From: Myxococcota bacterium
GTDB taxonomy: Bacteria; Myxococcota_A; Polyangia; Nannocystales; Nannocystaceae
Assembly: GCA_039028615.1 (NCBI GenBank)
Contig: JBCCHT010000002.1
Span: 192,001 to 256,000 of the forward strand
Length of the DNA: 64,000 nucleotides
Reading direction: 5' to 3'
Made by a program: the position numbers and the translations under genes. The notes below the pieces were generated by a model that saw only the letters and a program-made list of their open reading frames with translations, had not been told where the DNA came from and made no database searches. Positions 5,548 to 46,120 of this stretch are shown here, in pieces. Position 1 is the stretch's first letter, and each line of letters opens with the position of its first letter.

Positions 5548-6339
5548 ATGCGTCGCCCTTTCTCATCGTGCCCACGCTCCCGAGCTGCCACTCGGTTGCG
5601 GCATCCCGTGGGAGCTCTGCTCGCCACGCTGTTGTGGTTGGTGGGTGTCGAGGTCGGGCCGGGCATGCACGTGCTCTTCCACGGCCTGGCGGGACATCAT
5701 CACCACAGCGCCGCCGAGCAGCGGGAATGCGGGCTGCACCGAGCTCGTGACGACCACGAGTCGAAGCCCGCCCACCATCATCACGAGCACGGTCATCGCC
5801 ACGCTCAGGGGCACGCACAGGGGCACCACCACGACCCCGAGCCCGTCGCTCACGCGCACCAACACCGGCACCATCACGACGGCGGGCACGGAGAGGGTGA
5901 CCACCACCGCCCCGGCCCCGAGCCGGTCGCTCACGCGCACCAACACCACGGTCACGCGAGCGACCATGCGCATCCCGGCGAGTCTCATGAACTCGACGTC
6001 GGCCATCCTCATGGCGAACACCACCACGCCACCACCGATGGTGACGACGAGGGCGGTGGATACCACGACCACGGTGAGACCGACGACCACGAAGCCGACG
6101 GTTCGCGACTCGCCGACGCCGGGTCGCTGACCCGCTCGCGAGCGGTGCCGCATGGTCTCGGCAGCCTCGCCCACCGCGACCTCGCGTCGCTCCAGCCCCT
6201 GCCTGCCGCCCCTACGGTCCTCGAAGCTCCGTGGGAGAACGCGGACACGCAGGTCGACCCCGTCATCGCTCCTCGCGATCGTACGCCGACTACGGATCGA
6301 GCCCGCGGCCCGCCGCCGGCCCGGCTCTCCCTAGTCTAG
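5548..6339 (+). CDS. His-rich exported protein with C-terminal RGPP motif (DUF2946-like leader)
   Basis: N-terminal hydrophobic segment, long His-rich tract, ends DRARGPPPARLSLV. Confidence 0.7.
   Translation: MRRPFSSCPRSRAATRLRHPVGALLATLLWLVGVEVGPGMHVLFHGLAGHHHHSAAEQRECGLHRARDDHESKPAHHHHEHGHRHAQGHAQGHHHDPEPVAHAHQHRHHHDGGHGEGDHHRPGPEPVAHAHQHHGHASDHAHPGESHELDVGHPHGEHHHATTDGDDEGGGYHDHGETDDHEADGSRLADAGSLTRSRAVPHGLGSLAHRDLASLQPLPAAPTVLEAPWENADTQVDPVIAPRDRTPTTDRARGPPPARLSLV
5835..5947 (+). repeat. 32-bp internal direct repeat (encodes PEPVAHAHQH twice)
   Basis: 5835-5866 versus 5916-5947, one mismatch. Confidence 0.8.
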
Positions 6340-30075: not shown

Positions 30076-31017
30076 ATGTCCAGCCGCAGCGCCCGCAACA
30101 TGCTGATCCGGCAGTGGCAGATCCTCCAGCTGCTGCACGGGCGACGACGCGGCCTGACCCCGCGACGATTGCTCGAAGAGACGGGCAGCAGTCGCGCCAC
30201 TCTCTACCGCGACCTCGACATGCTCGAGCAAGCAGGCGTGCCCTTGCTGCGCGAGACGGTCAACGGCGAGGCGCGAGTCAGCCTCATCGGCGACAAGCTG
30301 CCCGCGCTGGCTCCCACCCCGCTGCAGTGGGACGCCCTGCGCCTGGCCCGGAGCTACCTCGAGCCGCTGCGCGGGACCTCGCTGCTCGACGAGCTCGACG
30401 CCCTGCTCGCCCGCAACCGCCCCAAGGCCCCGGGCGGCGCGACCCCTCCCGCCGACGACTCGTCGCCGCCCCCCGAGCACGCCCAGTCGCTCAAGGTGCT
30501 CGACGCTGCCATCGCGCAGCGCAAGAAGGTCCGCTTCCTCTATCGCTCGGCCGACGACACCGAGTACCGCCACCGCACCGTCGACCCCATCATGTGGCGA
30601 CTGGTGGAAGAGCACGTGTACCTCATCGCCCACGAGCCCGGCTCGGGGCACCGCACCTTCAAGGTCGCGCGCATGAACGAGACCGAGCGCCTCGACGAGG
30701 ACGCCCAGGTCCATGAGTTCGACGAGGAGATGTTCCGCGGCGCGGTCAAGATCTGGAGCGCGCCGCGGGTCGACGTCGAGATTCGCCTTTCGCCCTACGC
30801 CGCGCGCCTGCTGCCCGAGTATCCGCTGACGGTCGAGCAGGACGTCGAGCTCGAGGACGATGGCCACGCGATCCTGCGAGCCGAGGTCGCGGGCACCAAA
30901 GAGGTCGAGCGCTGGGTGCTGCACTGGGGTGCCCACGCCGAGGTCCGACAGCCACCCGAGCTGCGTGCGCAGGTGCGCGAGGAGCTGAAGGCGATGCTCG
31001 GGCACTACGACGACTGA
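30076..31017 (+). CDS. WYL domain transcriptional regulator (HTH-WYL-WCX)
   Basis: N-terminal wHTH (SRATLYRDLDML), RTVDP...VYLIAH...RTFKVARM, WVLHWGAHAEVRQPPELR. Confidence 0.9.
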   Translation: MSSRSARNMLIRQWQILQLLHGRRRGLTPRRLLEETGSSRATLYRDLDMLEQAGVPLLRETVNGEARVSLIGDKLPALAPTPLQWDALRLARSYLEPLRGTSLLDELDALLARNRPKAPGGATPPADDSSPPPEHAQSLKVLDAAIAQRKKVRFLYRSADDTEYRHRTVDPIMWRLVEEHVYLIAHEPGSGHRTFKVARMNETERLDEDAQVHEFDEEMFRGAVKIWSAPRVDVEIRLSPYAARLLPEYPLTVEQDVELEDDGHAILRAEVAGTKEVERWVLHWGAHAEVRQPPELRAQVREELKAMLGHYDD

Positions 31018-37212: not shown

Positions 37213-37767
37213 TCACCACTCGGGTTCGCTCTCGATGCCGAGCCCGTCGGCGAGGCGGTTGTAGTAGTTGAACAGCGCGGCGACCTGCACGATCTGGGAA
37301 ATCGCGGGGTCGTCGAAGCCCGCGTCGCGCAGGCGTTGAACGTCCTGCTGCGTCATCGACTGCGGGTGCGTGGTGAGCTTGACGGCGTAGTCCAGCATCG
37401 CCCGCTCGGCGGCGGTGATCGGTGCATCACGGTGGTCCTTCAGCACCGCGTCGACCAACGCATCGGCATCGTCTCGATCTTGGACCTCAGCCCGGAGGTC
37501 CTCGGCGTGCGCCCGCGCTCAATAGCCGCAGGCGTTGGTGCGCGAGACGGTGACCGCGATCATCTCGCGCTGCGCCCGGGTCAGCGGCTCGTCGGGCGAT
37601 TTCATGATGCGCGTGTACAGCCGGGTCGACACGTCGAGCACCTTAGGCTGCAGGCTCTGGATCGAGATGATGTTGAAGACCTTGCCCGCCCGGGTGATCG
37701 AGACGTCGAAAATCTTGCGAAGGCGACCGGTAGCATCCTTGGGTGAGATCAGTTCGATCCAGGGCAT
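37213..37767 (-). CDS. AhpD/carboxymuconolactone decarboxylase-family peroxidase-related selenoprotein (UGA at 37519-37521 read as Sec)
   Basis: Two track ORFs lie in one frame across a single TGA: REMIAVTVSRTNACGY-U-ARAH...AVKLT...FNYYNRLADGLG; 184 aa. Confidence 0.85.
37482..37501 (-). promoter_or_regulatory. putative bacterial SECIS element
   Basis: mRNA GGACCUC-CGGGCU-GAGGUCC, 7-bp stem starting 17 nt after the UGA, G-containing apical loop. Confidence 0.7.
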
Positions 37768-38811: not shown

Positions 38812-40143
38812 GTGTCCACCGTCGCCACGGTCTACGGTGAAGCGCACGACTCCGGTCGGCGGCGCGTGGAGCTGGTCATCGTGCGCGGGCGCGACGAAGG
38901 CCGGGCCATCGCCCTGCACGAAGGTCGCGTGCACCGGGTGGGCACCGCCTCCGACTGCGACCTGGTGATCACCGACGAACGCGTCTCCGGCCATCACCTC
39001 GAGGTCACGCCGCAGGGCTCGGACTTCAGCGTGGTCGATGCGGGCAGCACCAACGGCACCTTTTACCAGGGCTCGCGCATCGACCGAGCCACGCTGCCCC
39101 TGGGCGCGAGCATCAAGGTGGGGCGCAGCGTGCTGCGACTGCAGCCCCGCCCCGAGGCGCTCGAGCTGCCTCCCAGCCGCGCCCATCGCTTCGGCGACCT
39201 CGTCGGCCATAGCCTCGCCATGCGCCAGGTCTTCGCCGTGCTCGAGCACGCGGCCTGCTCCGAGGTCACGGTGCTGCTCGAGGGCGAGACGGGCACGGGC
39301 AAGGAGCTCGCCGCACGAGCACTGCACGAGACCAGCGAGCGCCGTAAGGGGCCCTTCGTAGCCGTGGACTGCGGGGCCCTGCCCGAGTCCCTGGTCGACT
39401 CCGAACTCTTCGGCCATGTGCGCGGGGCCTTCACGGGAGCCACCAGCGATCGCAAAGGGGCGTTCGCCCGGGCCCGCGGCGGCACCTTGTTCCTCGATGA
39501 ACTCGATGGGGTGCCGGCCGCCGTTCAGGCCCGCCTGCTGCGAGCCCTCGAGGAACGATCGGTTCGCCCCGTGGGCTCCGATCGCGAGCACCCGCTCGAC
39601 ATCCGCCTGGTGGTCGCGACCCAGGCCCCCCTGCCCGCGCTGGTGGCCGAGGGCCGCTTCCGGGCCGACCTGTTCTACCGCATCGCCGTGCTGCACCTGC
39701 GCCTGCCCCCGCTGCGAGAGCGGCGGGAAGACATCGCCGGGATCGTGGCCGAGCTGCTGTCGCAGCGTGGCCTGCCCTCGCATGCCCCCGAGGGCCCGGG
39801 GCTGCAGCGCCTGATGGCCCACGACTGGCCCGGCAACGTCCGAGAGCTGCGCAACGTCATCGATCGCGCGGTGGCCTTGTCGCCCGGCGCCGAACGTTTC
39901 GAGCAGCTCCGCGTGTGGCTGACCCCGCGCGAGCACGAGCTGGCCCCGCTCACCGTGCGCACCGACCTGCCCTTCGCCGAAGCCAAGACCCTGGTGGTCA
40001 TCGAGCTCGAGCGCCGCTACCTGAGCGAGCTGTGGGCTGATGCGGGCGGCAACCTCTCGGCCGCCGCCCGCCGAGCCGGGCTCGATCGCAAGCACCTACG
40101 CACCCTGCTTCGCCGCCACGGCTTGATCCCCGGTGACCCGTAG
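38812..40143 (+). CDS. FHA-domain sigma-54-dependent transcriptional activator
   Basis: FHA (VSGHH, GSTNGT), GETGTGKE, GAFTGA, WPGNVREL, C-terminal Fis-type HTH. Confidence 0.93.
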   Translation: MSTVATVYGEAHDSGRRRVELVIVRGRDEGRAIALHEGRVHRVGTASDCDLVITDERVSGHHLEVTPQGSDFSVVDAGSTNGTFYQGSRIDRATLPLGASIKVGRSVLRLQPRPEALELPPSRAHRFGDLVGHSLAMRQVFAVLEHAACSEVTVLLEGETGTGKELAARALHETSERRKGPFVAVDCGALPESLVDSELFGHVRGAFTGATSDRKGAFARARGGTLFLDELDGVPAAVQARLLRALEERSVRPVGSDREHPLDIRLVVATQAPLPALVAEGRFRADLFYRIAVLHLRLPPLRERREDIAGIVAELLSQRGLPSHAPEGPGLQRLMAHDWPGNVRELRNVIDRAVALSPGAERFEQLRVWLTPREHELAPLTVRTDLPFAEAKTLVVIELERRYLSELWADAGGNLSAAARRAGLDRKHLRTLLRRHGLIPGDP

Positions 40144-40872
40144 GACCACCGCGGTCATGTTGTCGGTCCCGCCCGCTTCATAGGCGGCCGACACCAGCTG
40201 ATGCGTGGCCTCGGCCGCGTGATCACAGCTGAGCGCCTCCACGAGCTGCTGCGAGCGCAGCGGCTCCCAGACGCCGTCCGAGCACAGCAGCAGGACATCG
40301 CCCGCCCGCAGCTCATCGGTCACGACATCGGCCTCGAGCGGACCCGGCATGCCCACCGCACGGGTCAGCACGTGACGGTAGCCCGCCATGGCCGCGGACT
40401 CCTCGGGCAGGCCGGCGCGGCGAGCCTCCTCCACGAAGGAGTGGTCCCGGGTCAAGCGCTGGAGCTGGCCGTCACGGAGCCGATACACCCGACTGTCGCC
40501 GACGTGACCGACCGCGATCCGGGTGCCGTCCCATGCCACCACCACCGCGGTGGAGCCCATCCGAGACAGCCGTCCCTCGCGCTGAGCCAGCACGCACACG
40601 TGGGCATGCCGAAGGCCCACCGAGACCTGATCGGCCAAGGGATCGCAGGTGGGTCGCGCCGCGAAGGGCCAGGTCGCCTCGGAGTCTTGCTGCCCCCGCG
40701 CGAACAGCTCGACCAGGCGCTCGACTACGATGCGGCTCGCCACTTCGCCACCTTCATAACCGCCCATGCCATCGGCCACGACGATCAATCCGAGGTCGGG
40801 TCGGAGGGCATGCGCGTCTTCGTTGTTGCGACGACGACCCACATGTGAAAACGCGCTGCAATGGAGTTCCAT
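40096..40872 (-). CDS. PP2C-family Ser/Thr phosphatase
   Basis: RRNNED, VADGMGG, HVGDSRVY, LCSDG, GGTDNMT. Confidence 0.93.
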   Translation of the reverse strand: MELHCSAFSHVGRRRNNEDAHALRPDLGLIVVADGMGGYEGGEVASRIVVERLVELFARGQQDSEATWPFAARPTCDPLADQVSVGLRHAHVCVLAQREGRLSRMGSTAVVVAWDGTRIAVGHVGDSRVYRLRDGQLQRLTRDHSFVEEARRAGLPEESAAMAGYRHVLTRAVGMPGPLEADVVTDELRAGDVLLLCSDGVWEPLRSQQLVEALSCDHAAEATHQLVSAAYEAGGTDNMTAVVLRVTGDQAVAAKQGA

Positions 40873-40884
40873 GCTCGCTTTCGA

Positions 40885-40900
40885 AGCGAGCATCGTGCCG
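40885..40900 (-). promoter_or_regulatory. possible sigma-54 promoter for the PP2C gene
   Basis: Minus strand CGGCACG-ATGC-TCGCT keeps GG-N10-GC; 12 nt upstream of the ATG. Confidence 0.4.
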
Positions 40901-41055
40901 TCGCCAAGGCCCCGGAATCACGAGATCGGGTGGGGTTTGCGCTCCTCGGTCGGCCTGTTGTTGGAGCCAAACCCGGGGTCCGCAGCCCCACCCCAAACCG
41001 CGCTCTAGTGCCCGAATACGGTCGAATTCAGCCAGGTCATTTTCGATCGAACCGA

Positions 41056-41075
41056 TGTCTCACGCTGGTGAGACA
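41056..41075. promoter_or_regulatory. perfect palindrome upstream of cas6 (operator or hairpin)
   Basis: TGTCTCAC-GCTG-GTGAGACA, 31 nt before the ATG. Confidence 0.5.
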
Positions 41076-41106
41076 GCCCCCCCGTAGGCTGATTTCGTAC
41101 CAAGTC

Positions 41107-41733
41107 ATGGAGGCTCACGAACTCGTCGATGTCGGTTTTCCTCTGCGGGGAGGCAAGCTCCCCACAGACCACGGATACCTACTCTTCTCCGCGCTGTGCG
41201 AGGCTCTCCCACGCCTCAGTCATGAACCCGGGTGGGCTCTCCACCTCATCGACGGCAAGCGCGAAGGCCCCCGTAAGATCCGATTGGGACCACGCTCGAT
41301 GGTGCGGCTGCGACTACCCGCCCGAGAGCTCGGCGAAGCACTCTCCTTGACTGGTCGCGACCTCGCTGTCGGCAGCGATCGTGTGCACCTGGGAATGGCA
41401 AAGGTCAAACCACTGGCCCCCGCCTCCCGACTCCGCTCCGCGGTCGTTACCACTCCCGGCTGCAACCGCTCGAGCTTTGAAGCCACGCTGCGGCGAGAAT
41501 TGGCCACCCTGCCCCTCGGGCAGGACCCATCCACCATCGAGCTCGAGGTGGGCGTAGAGCGCTTGCTTCGCGCAAGGGTTCGGACGGTGACCGGCTTCGA
41601 GGTCGTTCTTTCCAATCTCCGCCCCCACGCCTCGCTGTGCATCCAAGCAGAAGGACTCGGTGCTCGACGCCACATGGGCGCCGGTGTCTTTCTTCCTCTC
41701 AATGAGCCTCGATCCGTCCCTGATTCAGAATGA
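41107..41733 (+). CDS. cas6: orphan CRISPR-associated endoribonuclease Cas6 (I-MYXAN/Cmx6-like)
   Basis: VDVGFPLRGGKLPTDHGYLLFSAL N-terminus; LRLRLP-like strand; C-terminal G-rich loop GLGARRHMGAGVF; 208 aa. Confidence 0.85.
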   Translation: MEAHELVDVGFPLRGGKLPTDHGYLLFSALCEALPRLSHEPGWALHLIDGKREGPRKIRLGPRSMVRLRLPARELGEALSLTGRDLAVGSDRVHLGMAKVKPLAPASRLRSAVVTTPGCNRSSFEATLRRELATLPLGQDPSTIELEVGVERLLRARVRTVTGFEVVLSNLRPHASLCIQAEGLGARRHMGAGVFLPLNEPRSVPDSE

Positions 41734-41752
41734 CTATGGCGACTATTTCGTA

Positions 41753-41922
41753 GTGTCCGTGCTTCGTGTGCCGTGAGCGAGCTTCGTCGCATCTGTCGCG
41801 TTGCCGCCCCCGAATGGCCGTGAAGGTAGGAGAGGGTGACTCTTACCCTCACGGCAGCGACAACGAGACAACGTAGGTTGGTTAGCCGTGGCGAACCTCG
41901 ACTGCGTCGCATGAAGTACGAC
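41753..41922 (+). ncRNA. putative structured non-coding RNA (long rod with internal bubbles)
   Basis: Nested stems: 41755-70 with 41908-22; cgagcttcgtcgc with gtggcgaacctcg; tgtcgcgttgccgc with gcgacaacgagaca; gccgtgaaggtaggag with ctcttaccctcacggc. G-U pairs favour the + strand. Confidence 0.6.
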
Positions 41923-41923
41923 T

Positions 41924-41960
41924 GGCCCGCTTCCCTTCGGGGAAGCGGGCCTCTTTATTT
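41924..41960 (+). terminator. strong intrinsic terminator
   Basis: ggcccgcttccc-ttcg-gggaagcgggcc, 12-bp stem with cUUCGg loop, then tctttattt. Confidence 0.85.
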
Positions 41961-41981
41961 GGTTCGTCGGGTCGTCCGCGA

Positions 41982-43971: not shown

Positions 43972-44740
43972 ATGACGCTCGATCTCGAGTTCGTCGCGAT
44001 CGGAGCCCGCACCCCGGTAGGCCTCACCGCGCAAACCAGTACGGCGGCCATCCGGGCGGGAGTCTCACGCCTCCGCGAGTTCTCGTTCATCGCGGCCAAC
44101 GGCAAGCCCGTGGTCTTGGGCACCGACCCCCTCCTCGACGATCGCATCGAAGGCCGCGACCGCATGCGGGTCATGCTCGAGTCGGCCCTCGACCAAGCCC
44201 TCGCGAAAATCGGACCGCACCTGGCCCAGGCCCGCACGAGCTGCGACGTCTTGCTCGCCCTCCCCGAGACCCGCCCCGGCTTCTCCGACCCCGAAGCGCA
44301 GTGGATGTGCCAGGTCGCGCAGGTCCGCCTCCACCAGCACGGCATCGCCTGCAACGCGCTGTTGGCCGGCCGCGGCCACGCGGGCGCGCTGGCAGCCGTC
44401 GAACAGGCCACCCGAAGGGCGGAGCAACGGCGGCAGGCGGGCGAGGACGCCGTATTCGTCATCGCGGGCGCCGACAGCTACCACGACGCGCGCACGCTGC
44501 TTTGGCTGGAGTCCGAGCAGCGGCTGGCCATGCCCACCGTTCGCAACGGGTTCACCCCCGGCGAAGCGGCGGGCGCCCTGGTCCTCACCACCAAGGCCAT
44601 TCGTCGATCGTTGGGCCTGCCGTGCCTGGCGTCGCTCGACGGGGTGGGGCTCGCCCGGGAGGCACTGCTGCGAGACAGCGATACCGGGTCCTTCGGCCAG
44701 GGCCTGAGCCACGCCGTCAGCCAGGCCGCCCATGCGCTCT
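43972..44740 (+). pseudogene. truncated beta-ketoacyl synthase-like protein of toxin-delivery (PAAR-like) loci
   Basis: GARTPVGLTAQTSTAAIRAG, GHAG, AGADSY and GFTPGEAAG motifs; after ~44740 the frame becomes Arg-rich nonsense until the stop at 44940. Confidence 0.65.
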
Positions 44741-45368
44741 CCACGCCGACTTGGGGGAGACGGAGGAGACCCAGGCCGATGCGTCGGCGCTGGAATCCGC
44801 GCTCAAGGGCAAGAAATTCGAGCCCCGCGACATCAGCATGTTGGGCGTGGTGCATTGTCAGTGCGGAGATGCCAAGGCCGCGGCGCGCTCGACGATGCAG
44901 CGGTCGGGCGACTTCACCGCGGCCGCGTCTGGATACCTGACTCCCGCGTATACCGACTACAAGAATGCCGCTGCCGTCGTCGCGAAGATCAAGACGCATG
45001 CAGCCAACGAAAAAGCGTTCAACAAAGCGCTCGACCTCGCAAGGACACGACGGGCTGCATTCGTAAAATTGCAAAAGGAAGCCCCGGGCACGGCGCCGCA
45101 GGTCAACGTCCCGGGAGCGTGCGCGGCCCCCAAAGCGATGCTCTTGTTGCTCGAAGACGGAGGCCAGCCGGGTGCACTCACCGAGCGCTGGTGCGGCAGC
45201 CCGACCATGGCCAACCCGGTCGAACATTTCGACGAAACGAGCGGCGTCCGTGTCCGCGTCACCGACCGGGTCTTCGAGTATGGGAATTCAGTGCCTCCCT
45301 GCTTGGCCTGTGATGCCCTGCTGCCTCTGCTGCTGTGTGACAAGGACAAGCCATGTCACAAGAAGTAG
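44738..45368 (+). pseudogene. headless polymorphic toxin C-terminal domain (Cys-motif, deaminase-like pattern)
   Basis: Different frame: LHADLGETEETQ...PGACAAPKA...VPPCLAC...CHKK; stop overlaps the SMI1 gene start. Confidence 0.55.
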
Positions 45369-46120
45369 ATCCGTCGGAGCTCGAGCCCGAGCTCGAGGCG
45401 TTGCTGGTGCGCCTCGTCCCCGACATGCGCTCGCGGTGGCAGAGCGCGTCCGAGGCCGACATCGAAGCGCTCGAGACCATCGCCGGCGAGGAGCTGCCTC
45501 GCTGCTACCAGTGGTTCTTGCGCCGCCTGGGACGAGGTTGGGCGGACATCGGGTTCGGGACCCACGACTTCTCCGCGCAGACCATCGTGGCGGGACACGC
45601 CAGGGGTCTGTTCCCGCCGCACGAGGGCATGATGTGCATCGCCCACGACACCGCCGAGTGGGAACCCCAGCTGCGCTACTACGACCTGGCGCATCCCGCT
45701 GACGACGACGCGCCCGTGTTCATGGCCGGGCCCGAGGCAGAGGACTTCGAAGGCGAGTACGAGAGCCTCCGGGCCCTCATCGCGTCGACCATCTTCAGAA
45801 ACCACTACGTGCGACGCATGCCGCATCGCTGCGCGGGTCTGCTGGTGGACGACGGAGAAGGCAACGCGACGACCGCTCTGCTTCCCGTGCTGGAGGACCT
45901 CGGCTTCAGTACCCCTGTGGCGACCGGGTCCCTGTGCCAGCTCTACGAGGATGGCACCCATGTGCTGCACAGCTATCGCTCCCCCGAGTCGACCGCGCCC
46001 TACGTGCTGCCCTTCGACCTCGGCGCCCCTTCGGTGGCCGCGCTGCGCAAGCTGCTCGGCATCATCTGCACATCGACCGATCTAGTGGCCGAGAACCTGA
46101 CCTGGGATCCCGCTCTGTGA
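45353..46120 (+). CDS. SMI1/KNR4-family immunity protein
   Basis: ASEADIEALETIAGEELPRCYQWFLRRLG...DDAPVF. Confidence 0.8.
   Translation: MSQEVDPSELEPELEALLVRLVPDMRSRWQSASEADIEALETIAGEELPRCYQWFLRRLGRGWADIGFGTHDFSAQTIVAGHARGLFPPHEGMMCIAHDTAEWEPQLRYYDLAHPADDDAPVFMAGPEAEDFEGEYESLRALIASTIFRNHYVRRMPHRCAGLLVDDGEGNATTALLPVLEDLGFSTPVATGSLCQLYEDGTHVLHSYRSPESTAPYVLPFDLGAPSVAALRKLLGIICTSTDLVAENLTWDPAL

Follow-up and report, generated by a model that had tools for sequence, protein, structure and literature searches.

To our knowledge, Cas6 is known only as the repeat-processing component of CRISPR systems. What, then, is the role of a cas6 gene that is kept where no such system can be detected, and that has a strongly folded RNA behind it? 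The question is raised by a stretch of 64,000 nucleotides from a Myxococcota bacterium, here called the window, to which all plain coordinates refer; the source genome is labelled G000. A preliminary description of this DNA had proposed a self-contained unit of Cas6 and RNA, and had considered a Cas6 repurposed for a regulatory RNA, a mimic of CRISPR repeats, or a processor working in trans for a distant array.

The unit is apparently real, conserved and undescribed. It joins known parts to a new RNA family, and its mechanism we infer. In the full texts searched, supplements and subscription papers aside, we found no account of a solitary Cas6 accompanied by a non-repeat RNA, of CRISPR in this genus or of the operator described below; census tables may list isolated cas6 genes. 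The 'standalone Cas6' of PMC5965381 is, in the part of that article available, one outside the complex, not one outside CRISPR. If our reading is true, the unit represents exaptation at its most minimal and shows how a Cas6 can switch its RNA target in nature: a vertically inherited protein under purifying selection, in genomes without detectable CRISPR, paired with an undescribed structured RNA. The finding concerns one genus among the genomes searched, and the function of the unit is a proposal.

Organization of the locus

The features are, in window coordinates:

30076..31017, plus strand: gene of an HTH-WYL-WCX regulator, the predicted operator binder (Pfam WCX, WYL and HTH_11 above cut-off)
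40096..40893, minus strand: PP2C phosphatase gene (PF13672), a divergent, conserved left neighbour, probably outside the module
41035..41045, plus strand: second, weaker conserved upstream element, consensus GATCGATTTCG, from the upstream alignment
41057..41074, unstranded: operator GTCTCA-N6-TGAGAC, within the palindrome 41056-41075
41085..41090, plus strand: -10-like hexamer TAGGCT, 10 nt 3' of the operator and 16 nt 5' of the start codon
41107..41733, plus strand: solo Cas6/Cmx6 of 208 aa (profiles, fold, dN/dS)
41734..41757, plus strand: pyrimidine-rich linker (orthologue linkers 24-85 nt, 58-81% C+T)
41758..41926, plus strand: conserved structured RNA (rod) of ~170 nt (folding, alignment, profile search)
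41758 to ~41920, plus strand: RNA outer stem P1 (rod model)
41794-41807 with 41857-41870, plus strand: RNA helix P2, GACGUCGC-type
41808-41816, plus strand: C-rich 5' bulge of the RNA (rod model)
41817-41832 with 41840-41855, plus strand: RNA helix P3/P4 (rod model)
41833-41839, plus strand: RNA apical loop NGGGUGA (rod model)
41924..41960, plus strand: intrinsic terminator, 12-bp stem with UUCG loop (41924-41951) and T-rich tail

The terminator, already noticed in the preliminary description, is the right edge of the conserved block; comparable hairpins occur in the loci L012, L013, L015, L018, L019 and L020, and the genes downstream differ among orthologous loci. On the left, the PP2C gene lies upstream of cas6 in L012, L014, L015 and L019-L022 and is absent there in L013. 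The neighbours had been called unrelated. This holds for the PP2C gene and for the SnoaL-like gene, whose Pfam score is below cut-off; the CRISPR-type WYL regulator gene at 30076-31017 is an exception.

The Cas6 protein

The intact Cas6-like reading frame of 208 amino acids had been recognized by its motifs DHGY and GLGARRHMGAG, and the assignment proved correct. The product of 41107-41733, which carries both motifs, is a true Cas6/Cmx6 of type I-B 'MYXAN'. It scores above the cut-offs of both curated profiles, with 146 bits for TIGR02807 (cas6_cmx6; cut-off 98.85) and 153 bits for PF09559 (cut-off 26.7), and in a profile search against PDB it matches 8FCJ_B (E 1.8e-61). The AlphaFold model (pLDDT 95.4) has the same I-B Cas6, 8FCJ_B, as its top fold match (TM 0.84); the double RRM fold, the glycine-rich loop and the N-terminal histidine are all present. 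With the Cas6 of I-B (MYXAN/Cmx) systems the protein shares family, fold, DH-Y motif and glycine-rich loop. In contrast to these systems, it belongs to a genome in which cas3, cas8, cas7, cas5, cas1 and an array were not found, three commonly basic positions are replaced, and a structured non-repeat RNA lies behind its gene in place of cas3.

The gene is conserved, under purifying selection and not decaying. Against nine orthologues its dN/dS is 0.107-0.180 at a dS of 1.04-1.47 (Nei-Gojobori, codons 2-197, nine pairs, each against G000). Among 42 proteins of the clade the active-site residues D21, H22 and Y24 are retained in 41, 40 and 41, respectively, and G183, G185, R187, R188, G191 and G193 of the glycine-rich loop in all 42. 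Other positions have changed. R112, K/R117 and R151, present in 72, 80 and 78 of 87 other Cmx6 proteins (representatives whose genomic context is unknown for most), are found in 0, 0 and 1 of the 42 clade members, of which 41-42 carry a fixed A156-R157-V158-R159 (ARVR) at the tip of a beta-hairpin. According to the part of PMC3902920 available, the second RRM of Cas6 reads RNA with the element that follows its first strand, and a C-terminal beta-hairpin takes part in the readout. Residues 117 and 156-159 map to these elements by the secondary structure of the model rather than by coordinates of a complex. The RNA-reading surfaces thus appear altered, which fits a new specificity and, equally, a loss of RNA binding. 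The operon cas6 of another locus (L017:5001-5315) has an in-frame internal deletion of ~70 residues.

Orthologues with 75-80% identity occur in four of the five other genomes of the genus and point to the Nannocystaceae. A search through 73 genomes of the order gave five genomes with a match above cut-off, all within this genus; among the genomes searched, the solo cas6 clade is confined to it. Metagenomes add five loci, which makes ten orthologous loci with context, and ~40 further protein clusters of the clade (65-92% identity) come without genomic context. The genome G004 is without the entire block and is uninformative here. A second solo cas6 paralogue, 46-47% identical and with the same operator and -10 box, is found in L009 (G001:C278) and L010 (G002:C6); in a quick tree it is the sister of the solo clade (support 99), and the rod RNA is absent behind it. 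Beyond the genus, Cmx6 was found in 10 of 400 other genomes of a phylum sample, none close and most with cas3 behind it. The viral contigs searched contained one weak partial match only, the plasmids seven cyanobacterial Cmx6 with 28-38% identity. Fortunately, a cultured species, Paraliomyxa miuraensis (L014), carries the unit, which is therefore open to testing.

No CRISPR system found

That the window contains no other cas genes and no array was borne out, and the absence extends to the whole assembly searched (12.27 Mb, 94 contigs, 96.7% complete). It has a single Cmx6 gene. Profile searches, which left out the effectors of types II, V and VI, yielded no cas1, RAMP, Cas5d or cas3-HD match in the assembly; tblastn with the six I-MYXAN Cas proteins of G003 matched the solo cas6 alone, and I-MYXAN cas7/8 were not found in G000. 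Two repeat finders, run on the genome as the preliminary description had recommended, detected no array in this draft, in which one could be unassembled, and no candidate on this contig; the candidates on other contigs are tandem or coding repeats, as judged by eye. From a type I-B (MYXAN) system, cas3, cas8, cas7, cas5 and the array are therefore all unfound in G000.

In the genus at large, I-MYXAN cas7 was not found in five of six genomes, among them all four that bear the RNA, and canonical cas1 is present in two of six. A full I-MYXAN system, together with the start of an array, was seen in G003 only, a single case that proves nothing; the cas6 of the G003 operon belongs, in a quick tree, to a different branch from the solo clade. 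Weak, split matches to Cas1 profiles at G004:C1:758341-758934 and G005:C53:24667-25281 lie in frames of 622-746 aa, which are divergent and Cas1-like.

The structured RNA

The rod-like fold of about 170 nt that had been noticed behind the stop codon is there, 24 nt after the stop. Alone (41758-41926) it folds with z = -4.57, and z -4 was reached by none of 150 random G000 windows; together with the terminator (41734-41965) z is -6.38, and none of 200 shuffles was equally stable. Across the RNA members z ranges from -0.73 to -5.75, with weak values in L019 (-0.73) and G001 (-2.12).

The RNA is present in nine of the ten orthologous loci, where it starts 24-85 nt after the cas6 stop, and was found nowhere else. 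Common to its members are the outer stem, P2, the C-rich 5' bulge, P3/P4 and the GGGUGA loop; the small 3' hairpin is variable. GGGTGA stands in the loop of 9/9 RNAs as against 0.07 expected per 170 nt, while just 5 of 75 fourfold-degenerate sites are invariant. A leave-one-out profile from the eight other RNAs places the G000 copy on top of 12.3 Mb (E 1.2e-4; the next match has 0.33). The model R1 has a single match in G000, behind the solo cas6. Of the 73 genomes of the order, 4 have matches, as does 1 of the 121 genomes of the class, always behind solo cas6; 24-39 candidates were scored in each genome, and the sequences matched are those used for training. With the RNA kept in 9/10 loci and the gene under purifying selection, the locus is therefore neither a decaying copy nor one with an RNA unlinked to cas6, and the proposal of a self-contained unit stands.

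The members differ by compensatory changes. In the MAFFT alignment 81.7% of the cells pair, compared with 71.8 after shuffling and 30-49% in slid controls, and double-sided pair changes number 18 versus 9.0, a value reached by none of 500 shuffles; the structure used in these counts was derived from the same sequences, and the rows are kin. The covariation term of RNAalifold is unfavourable (+1.17) on the first alignment and favourable (-1.45) only on the model-fitted one. Folding energy leaves the strand undecided, plus being better in five and minus in four of the nine. We take the RNA to be on the plus strand because of the plus-strand terminator, the direction of the gene, and the one-sided changes in P2 and P3, which are mostly G-U wobbles on that strand.

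There is one exception. In L013 (G003), cas6, operator and terminator are intact and the core of the RNA is lost; a short hairpin there matches L014 and L022 better than 200/200 shuffles and five other members at chance level. As L013 and the sister clade L009/L010 do without the RNA, Cas6 can be kept without the rod. The other eight RNA-bearing loci are close kin, at least seven of them in one syntenic block, and the co-occurrence of cas6 and RNA is therefore partly shared ancestry. The one metatranscriptome searched contained a single 264-nt contig on cas6, ~94% alike and with no cover of the rod, and is uninformative on expression.

In Rfam the window has no match at gathering score and six of chance level at E<=10; eight related loci gave three irrelevant matches. 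By these comparisons the rod is real and conserved, and represents a new RNA family that matches no Rfam entry, with transcription predicted from its setting. In length and shape it is similar to 6S RNA, itself a rod. RF00013 has no match at the rod with E<=10, and a canonical 6S RNA, above the Rfam cut-off, is located elsewhere, at G000:C59:45788-45953 (L037). The myxobacterial small RNA Pxr (RF01812) has a similar terminator, over which most of the rod's match of 22 bits (cut-off 80) extends. Retron ncRNAs combine msr/msd with an adjacent reverse transcriptase. The rod has no such neighbour; the only reverse transcriptase found in G000 is on contig C16, with its own hairpin. A small-peptide or CreT-like reading was also considered and rejected: judged by eye, the AGG-AGA run before the TGA of the loop in G000 is not shared by the other members, and behind the loop no start codon is conserved. 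The loop could on paper pair in cis with the C-rich bulge, which is speculative; the intervening helix of 14-17 bp is long for a pseudoknot, and the invariance of the loop puts the pairing beyond a covariation test. In L012, the linker before the RNA (5616-5700) comprises a short unit in about four tandem copies.

Operator and WYL regulator

The palindrome noticed upstream of the gene is present at 41056-41075, with arms of 8 bp and a centre of 4 nt. Could it be an RNA hairpin cut by Cas6? This was ruled out, because it lies 5' of the predicted -10 box and is repeated before unrelated genes. Judged by position and recurrence, it is a DNA operator, to which a protein would bind. Its arms are invariant in 11/11 aligned loci. 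Perfect sites number 3 in G000 as against 0.31 expected; each of the six genus genomes has 2-6 copies, and 5 of 67 others a single one. The operator precedes both solo cas6 genes, that of the clade and the sister paralogue. Each of the six genus genomes also has it before an unnamed gene of 172-190 aa; in G000 and G001 it further stands before a tail-sheath operon, and in G002 and G004 before a second unnamed gene. The tail-sheath/tube operon, with the operator upstream (G000:C34:1974; L057), is contractile-injection-like. Copies of the 172-190 aa protein are encoded at G000:C20:42135-42653 and in L049, L051, L053, L055 and L056, most of them next to a thioredoxin-like gene (YyaL-type, by eye); neither ESM Atlas nor Pfam named the co-regulated protein of 177 aa.

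A set of 18 operator sites, oriented by the downstream gene, has a hexamer 10 nt further on whose last base is T and which often reads TA-NNN-T. The perfect sites of L052 and L091 and the first of L058 were left out of this set for want of a clear box; the site on C34 of G000 is likewise without a clear -10 at N10. A consensus sigma-70 scan upstream of solo cas6 returned no -35/-10 pair. The spacing equals that of the PafBC promoter, for which the available text of PMC8635444 gives the layout tGTCgg(N10)tA(N3)T.

The candidate binder is the WYL regulator of 30076-31017. It is found in 6/6 genus genomes and 0/67 other genomes of the family (E<=1e-20), so that operator and WYL gene have one common distribution. 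It stands upstream of cas6 by 10 kb in G000, 8 kb in G005 and 5 kb in G003; in G001 and G002 the two genes are on different contigs. Homologues with 41-48% identity reside inside complete I-MYXAN loci (L016, L023, L076). Of 15 other Cmx6 loci, the three with this WYL gene have an N7 form of the operator <=400 nt upstream of cas6; in the remaining 12 none was found in that 400-nt window, and the fetched DNA may stop short of their regulators. Directly behind WYL genes the N7 form was seen at L016:2241, L076:8613 and L023:2852; in L016 it precedes cas4-cas1, and in L023 one site serves both the WYL gene and cas6. With the motif next to the WYL gene in each of three complete I-MYXAN loci, the N7 sites are a candidate, and testable, operator of the regulators encoded there. 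In our genus a CRISPR-type regulator seems to have taken over other genes, provided that it binds as predicted.

WYL activators respond to single-stranded DNA, according to the excerpt of PMC9186387. By analogy, we would expect the WYL protein to bind the operator and to activate rather than to repress. It has the HTH-WYL-WCX build of PafBC and DriD, and the operator stands at a fixed distance before the -10 and is co-distributed with the regulator. With PafBC it shares, besides this build, a 6-bp element 10 nt before the -10 and the lack of a -35 (PMC8635444, in part), with DriD the palindromic nature of the site (PMC9186387, in part). Unlike PafBC and DriD, it is a single WYL gene of CRISPR-locus ancestry, with a small predicted regulon consisting of cas6 paralogues, the unknown helical protein and the tail-sheath operon. 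Behind the top operator-matrix matches in G000 no recognizable repair gene was seen (by eye, not by systematic annotation).

Proposed origin and possible function

Any explanation has to account for what was observed: family and fold of the protein, selection on its gene, co-conservation with the RNA, the support for the RNA structure, the enrichment of the operator and its co-distribution with the WYL gene. That a single CRISPR RNA-cutting gene, a switch and a folded RNA were kept after loss of the system suggests a new job for Cas6. We see an even chance that the unit is a domesticated relic of a type I-B (MYXAN) system: a Cas6 with remodelled RNA-binding surfaces and its non-repeat partner RNA, both driven by a WYL stress switch. 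The ancestor of the genus would have held on to the WYL regulator and the cas6 of an old I-MYXAN locus and lost the remainder. The WYL protein would bind GTCTCA-N6-TGAGAC upstream of the -10 box and, as in PafBC and DriD, the promoter would be switched on by single-stranded nucleic acid, be it from DNA damage or from phage; by now the regulator would also control a few other genes. A single transcript may run from cas6 through the U/C-rich linker and the 170-nt rod to the terminator. Cas6, with its active-site motifs kept and the surfaces reading repeat hairpins changed, would recognize the rod, most likely at P2 and the bulge or at the apical hairpin, and either cut it free of the mRNA or remain bound. 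Stress would induce a small RNA or a ribonucleoprotein that touches a target with its exposed GGGUGA loop; this function of the RNA we infer.

A more far-reaching version is tentative, and we hold it to be somewhat less than an even bet. Cas6 would have left CRISPR immunity and co-evolved with a non-repeat RNA into a two-part ribonucleoprotein, or into a processor with its small RNA; the captured CRISPR WYL regulator would induce the unit on single-stranded nucleic acid, alongside a contractile-injection operon, and the GGGUGA loop would be the working end, which might pair with a target, contact the ribosome or join the C-rich bulge of a second copy in an RNA-RNA assembly. There are precedents of a kind. 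According to the available text of PMC8730458, exapted CRISPR derivatives include the Streptomyces cas5-6-7-8 + STAND module, HRAMP and the myxobacterial dev operon. Like our unit, they have Cas parts without adaptation, nuclease or array and presumably a new role; unlike it, they keep several RAMP/Cascade subunits, as described there, whereas here a lone Cas6 is left with an RNA and a regulator.

The rod and Cas6 could, of course, be two passengers of one WYL promoter, the rod being a 3'-UTR-derived small RNA or mRNA element that housekeeping RNases cut at the U/C-rich linker, and Cas6 acting on other cellular or phage RNAs. The persistence of Cas6 without RNA in L013 and L009/L010, linkers that are pyrimidine-rich in all loci and the missing repeat likeness of the rod would agree with this. 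Yet the RNA was never found apart from solo cas6 and is never more than 85 nt from the stop, whatever genes lie downstream, and altered RNA-reading surfaces beside a conserved hairpin RNA are more simply explained by contact; we consider the two-passenger reading rather unlikely, though worth serious attention. A spare Cas6 that processes arrays in trans, unassembled ones or such on elements that come and go, with the rod as a stabilizer of its mRNA, is clearly improbable. Supply of Cas6 in trans is known (PMC12669027, in part), arrays are often missing from assemblies such as this one of 94 contigs, G003 has its full system, and cas1 survives in two of the six genomes. All the same, I-MYXAN cas7 was not found in five of the six genus genomes, all four RNA-bearing ones included, and the idea of a processor for a distant array finds no support, none having been found in G000. 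The best ungapped match to the G003 repeat in G000 covers 27 of 36 positions without array context, the G003 operon has a cas6 of its own from a different branch, basic residues typical of other Cmx6 are replaced in the solo protein, and an invariant loop is unexpected for a plain stabilizer.

CreA is reportedly a small RNA beside cas6, derived from a repeat and in need of Cascade. A heavily degenerate repeat-spacer-repeat of the CreA, Racr or mini-array type, guiding or jamming a Cascade, would make the rod a repeat mimic, as had been envisaged. Repeat-like RNAs are indeed enriched near cas6 in I-B loci (10.1101/2023.03.03.530964, in part), and like these mini-array crlRNAs and solitary repeats the rod is a small RNA beside cas6 in a I-B context; the crlRNAs, however, are repeat-derived and Cascade-dependent in that account, and the rod neither resembles a repeat nor has a Cascade with it. 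Against the I-MYXAN repeats (five arrays and that of G003) no likeness rose above shuffles. Over full length, identity to the five is 14-24 of 36, and the resemblance of a P2 strand to GGCGTTG within the repeat, on average 5.1 of 7, is equalled by 19/25 shuffled repeats (20/25 for 10-mers). The would-be spacer sits inside a conserved hairpin, there are no repeat-derived flanks around a guide, and Cascade genes to load the RNA were not found in G000. With no repeat likeness above chance and no Rfam family, the CreA/Racr reading is therefore not supported, and we rate it as very improbable. Marginally less probable still is a rod that acts as DNA, in the form of a cruciform or a single-stranded hairpin, or that serves the reverse transcriptase of G000 in trans as a retron-like template. 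The indifference of the folding energy to strand and the presence of one such enzyme with a long upstream hairpin speak for it; the enzyme, however, has its own msr/msd-like region, R1 is unmatched there, the Rfam searches of the window and eight related loci gave no retron family, the one-sided changes in P2/P3 are mostly plus-strand G-U wobbles, and the rod has a stop codon before it and a plus-strand terminator behind it.

Further observations

The retron-type reverse transcriptase is encoded at G000:C16:159887-160522 (L089), with the long hairpin upstream and, behind it, a gene that is WGR-like by eye. Within the window, a CMD/AhpD-like gene (37213-37767, minus strand) has one in-frame TGA in a C-G-Y-stop motif with an open frame beyond; its product is probably a selenoprotein (CxxU). 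The stretch 43972-46120 (plus strand) looks like a bacterial toxin-immunity remnant. It contains a PRK06147-like gene with a frame change near 44730, a reading frame with a Cys motif that ends at 45368 (no Pfam match), and then an SMI1/KNR4-like gene.
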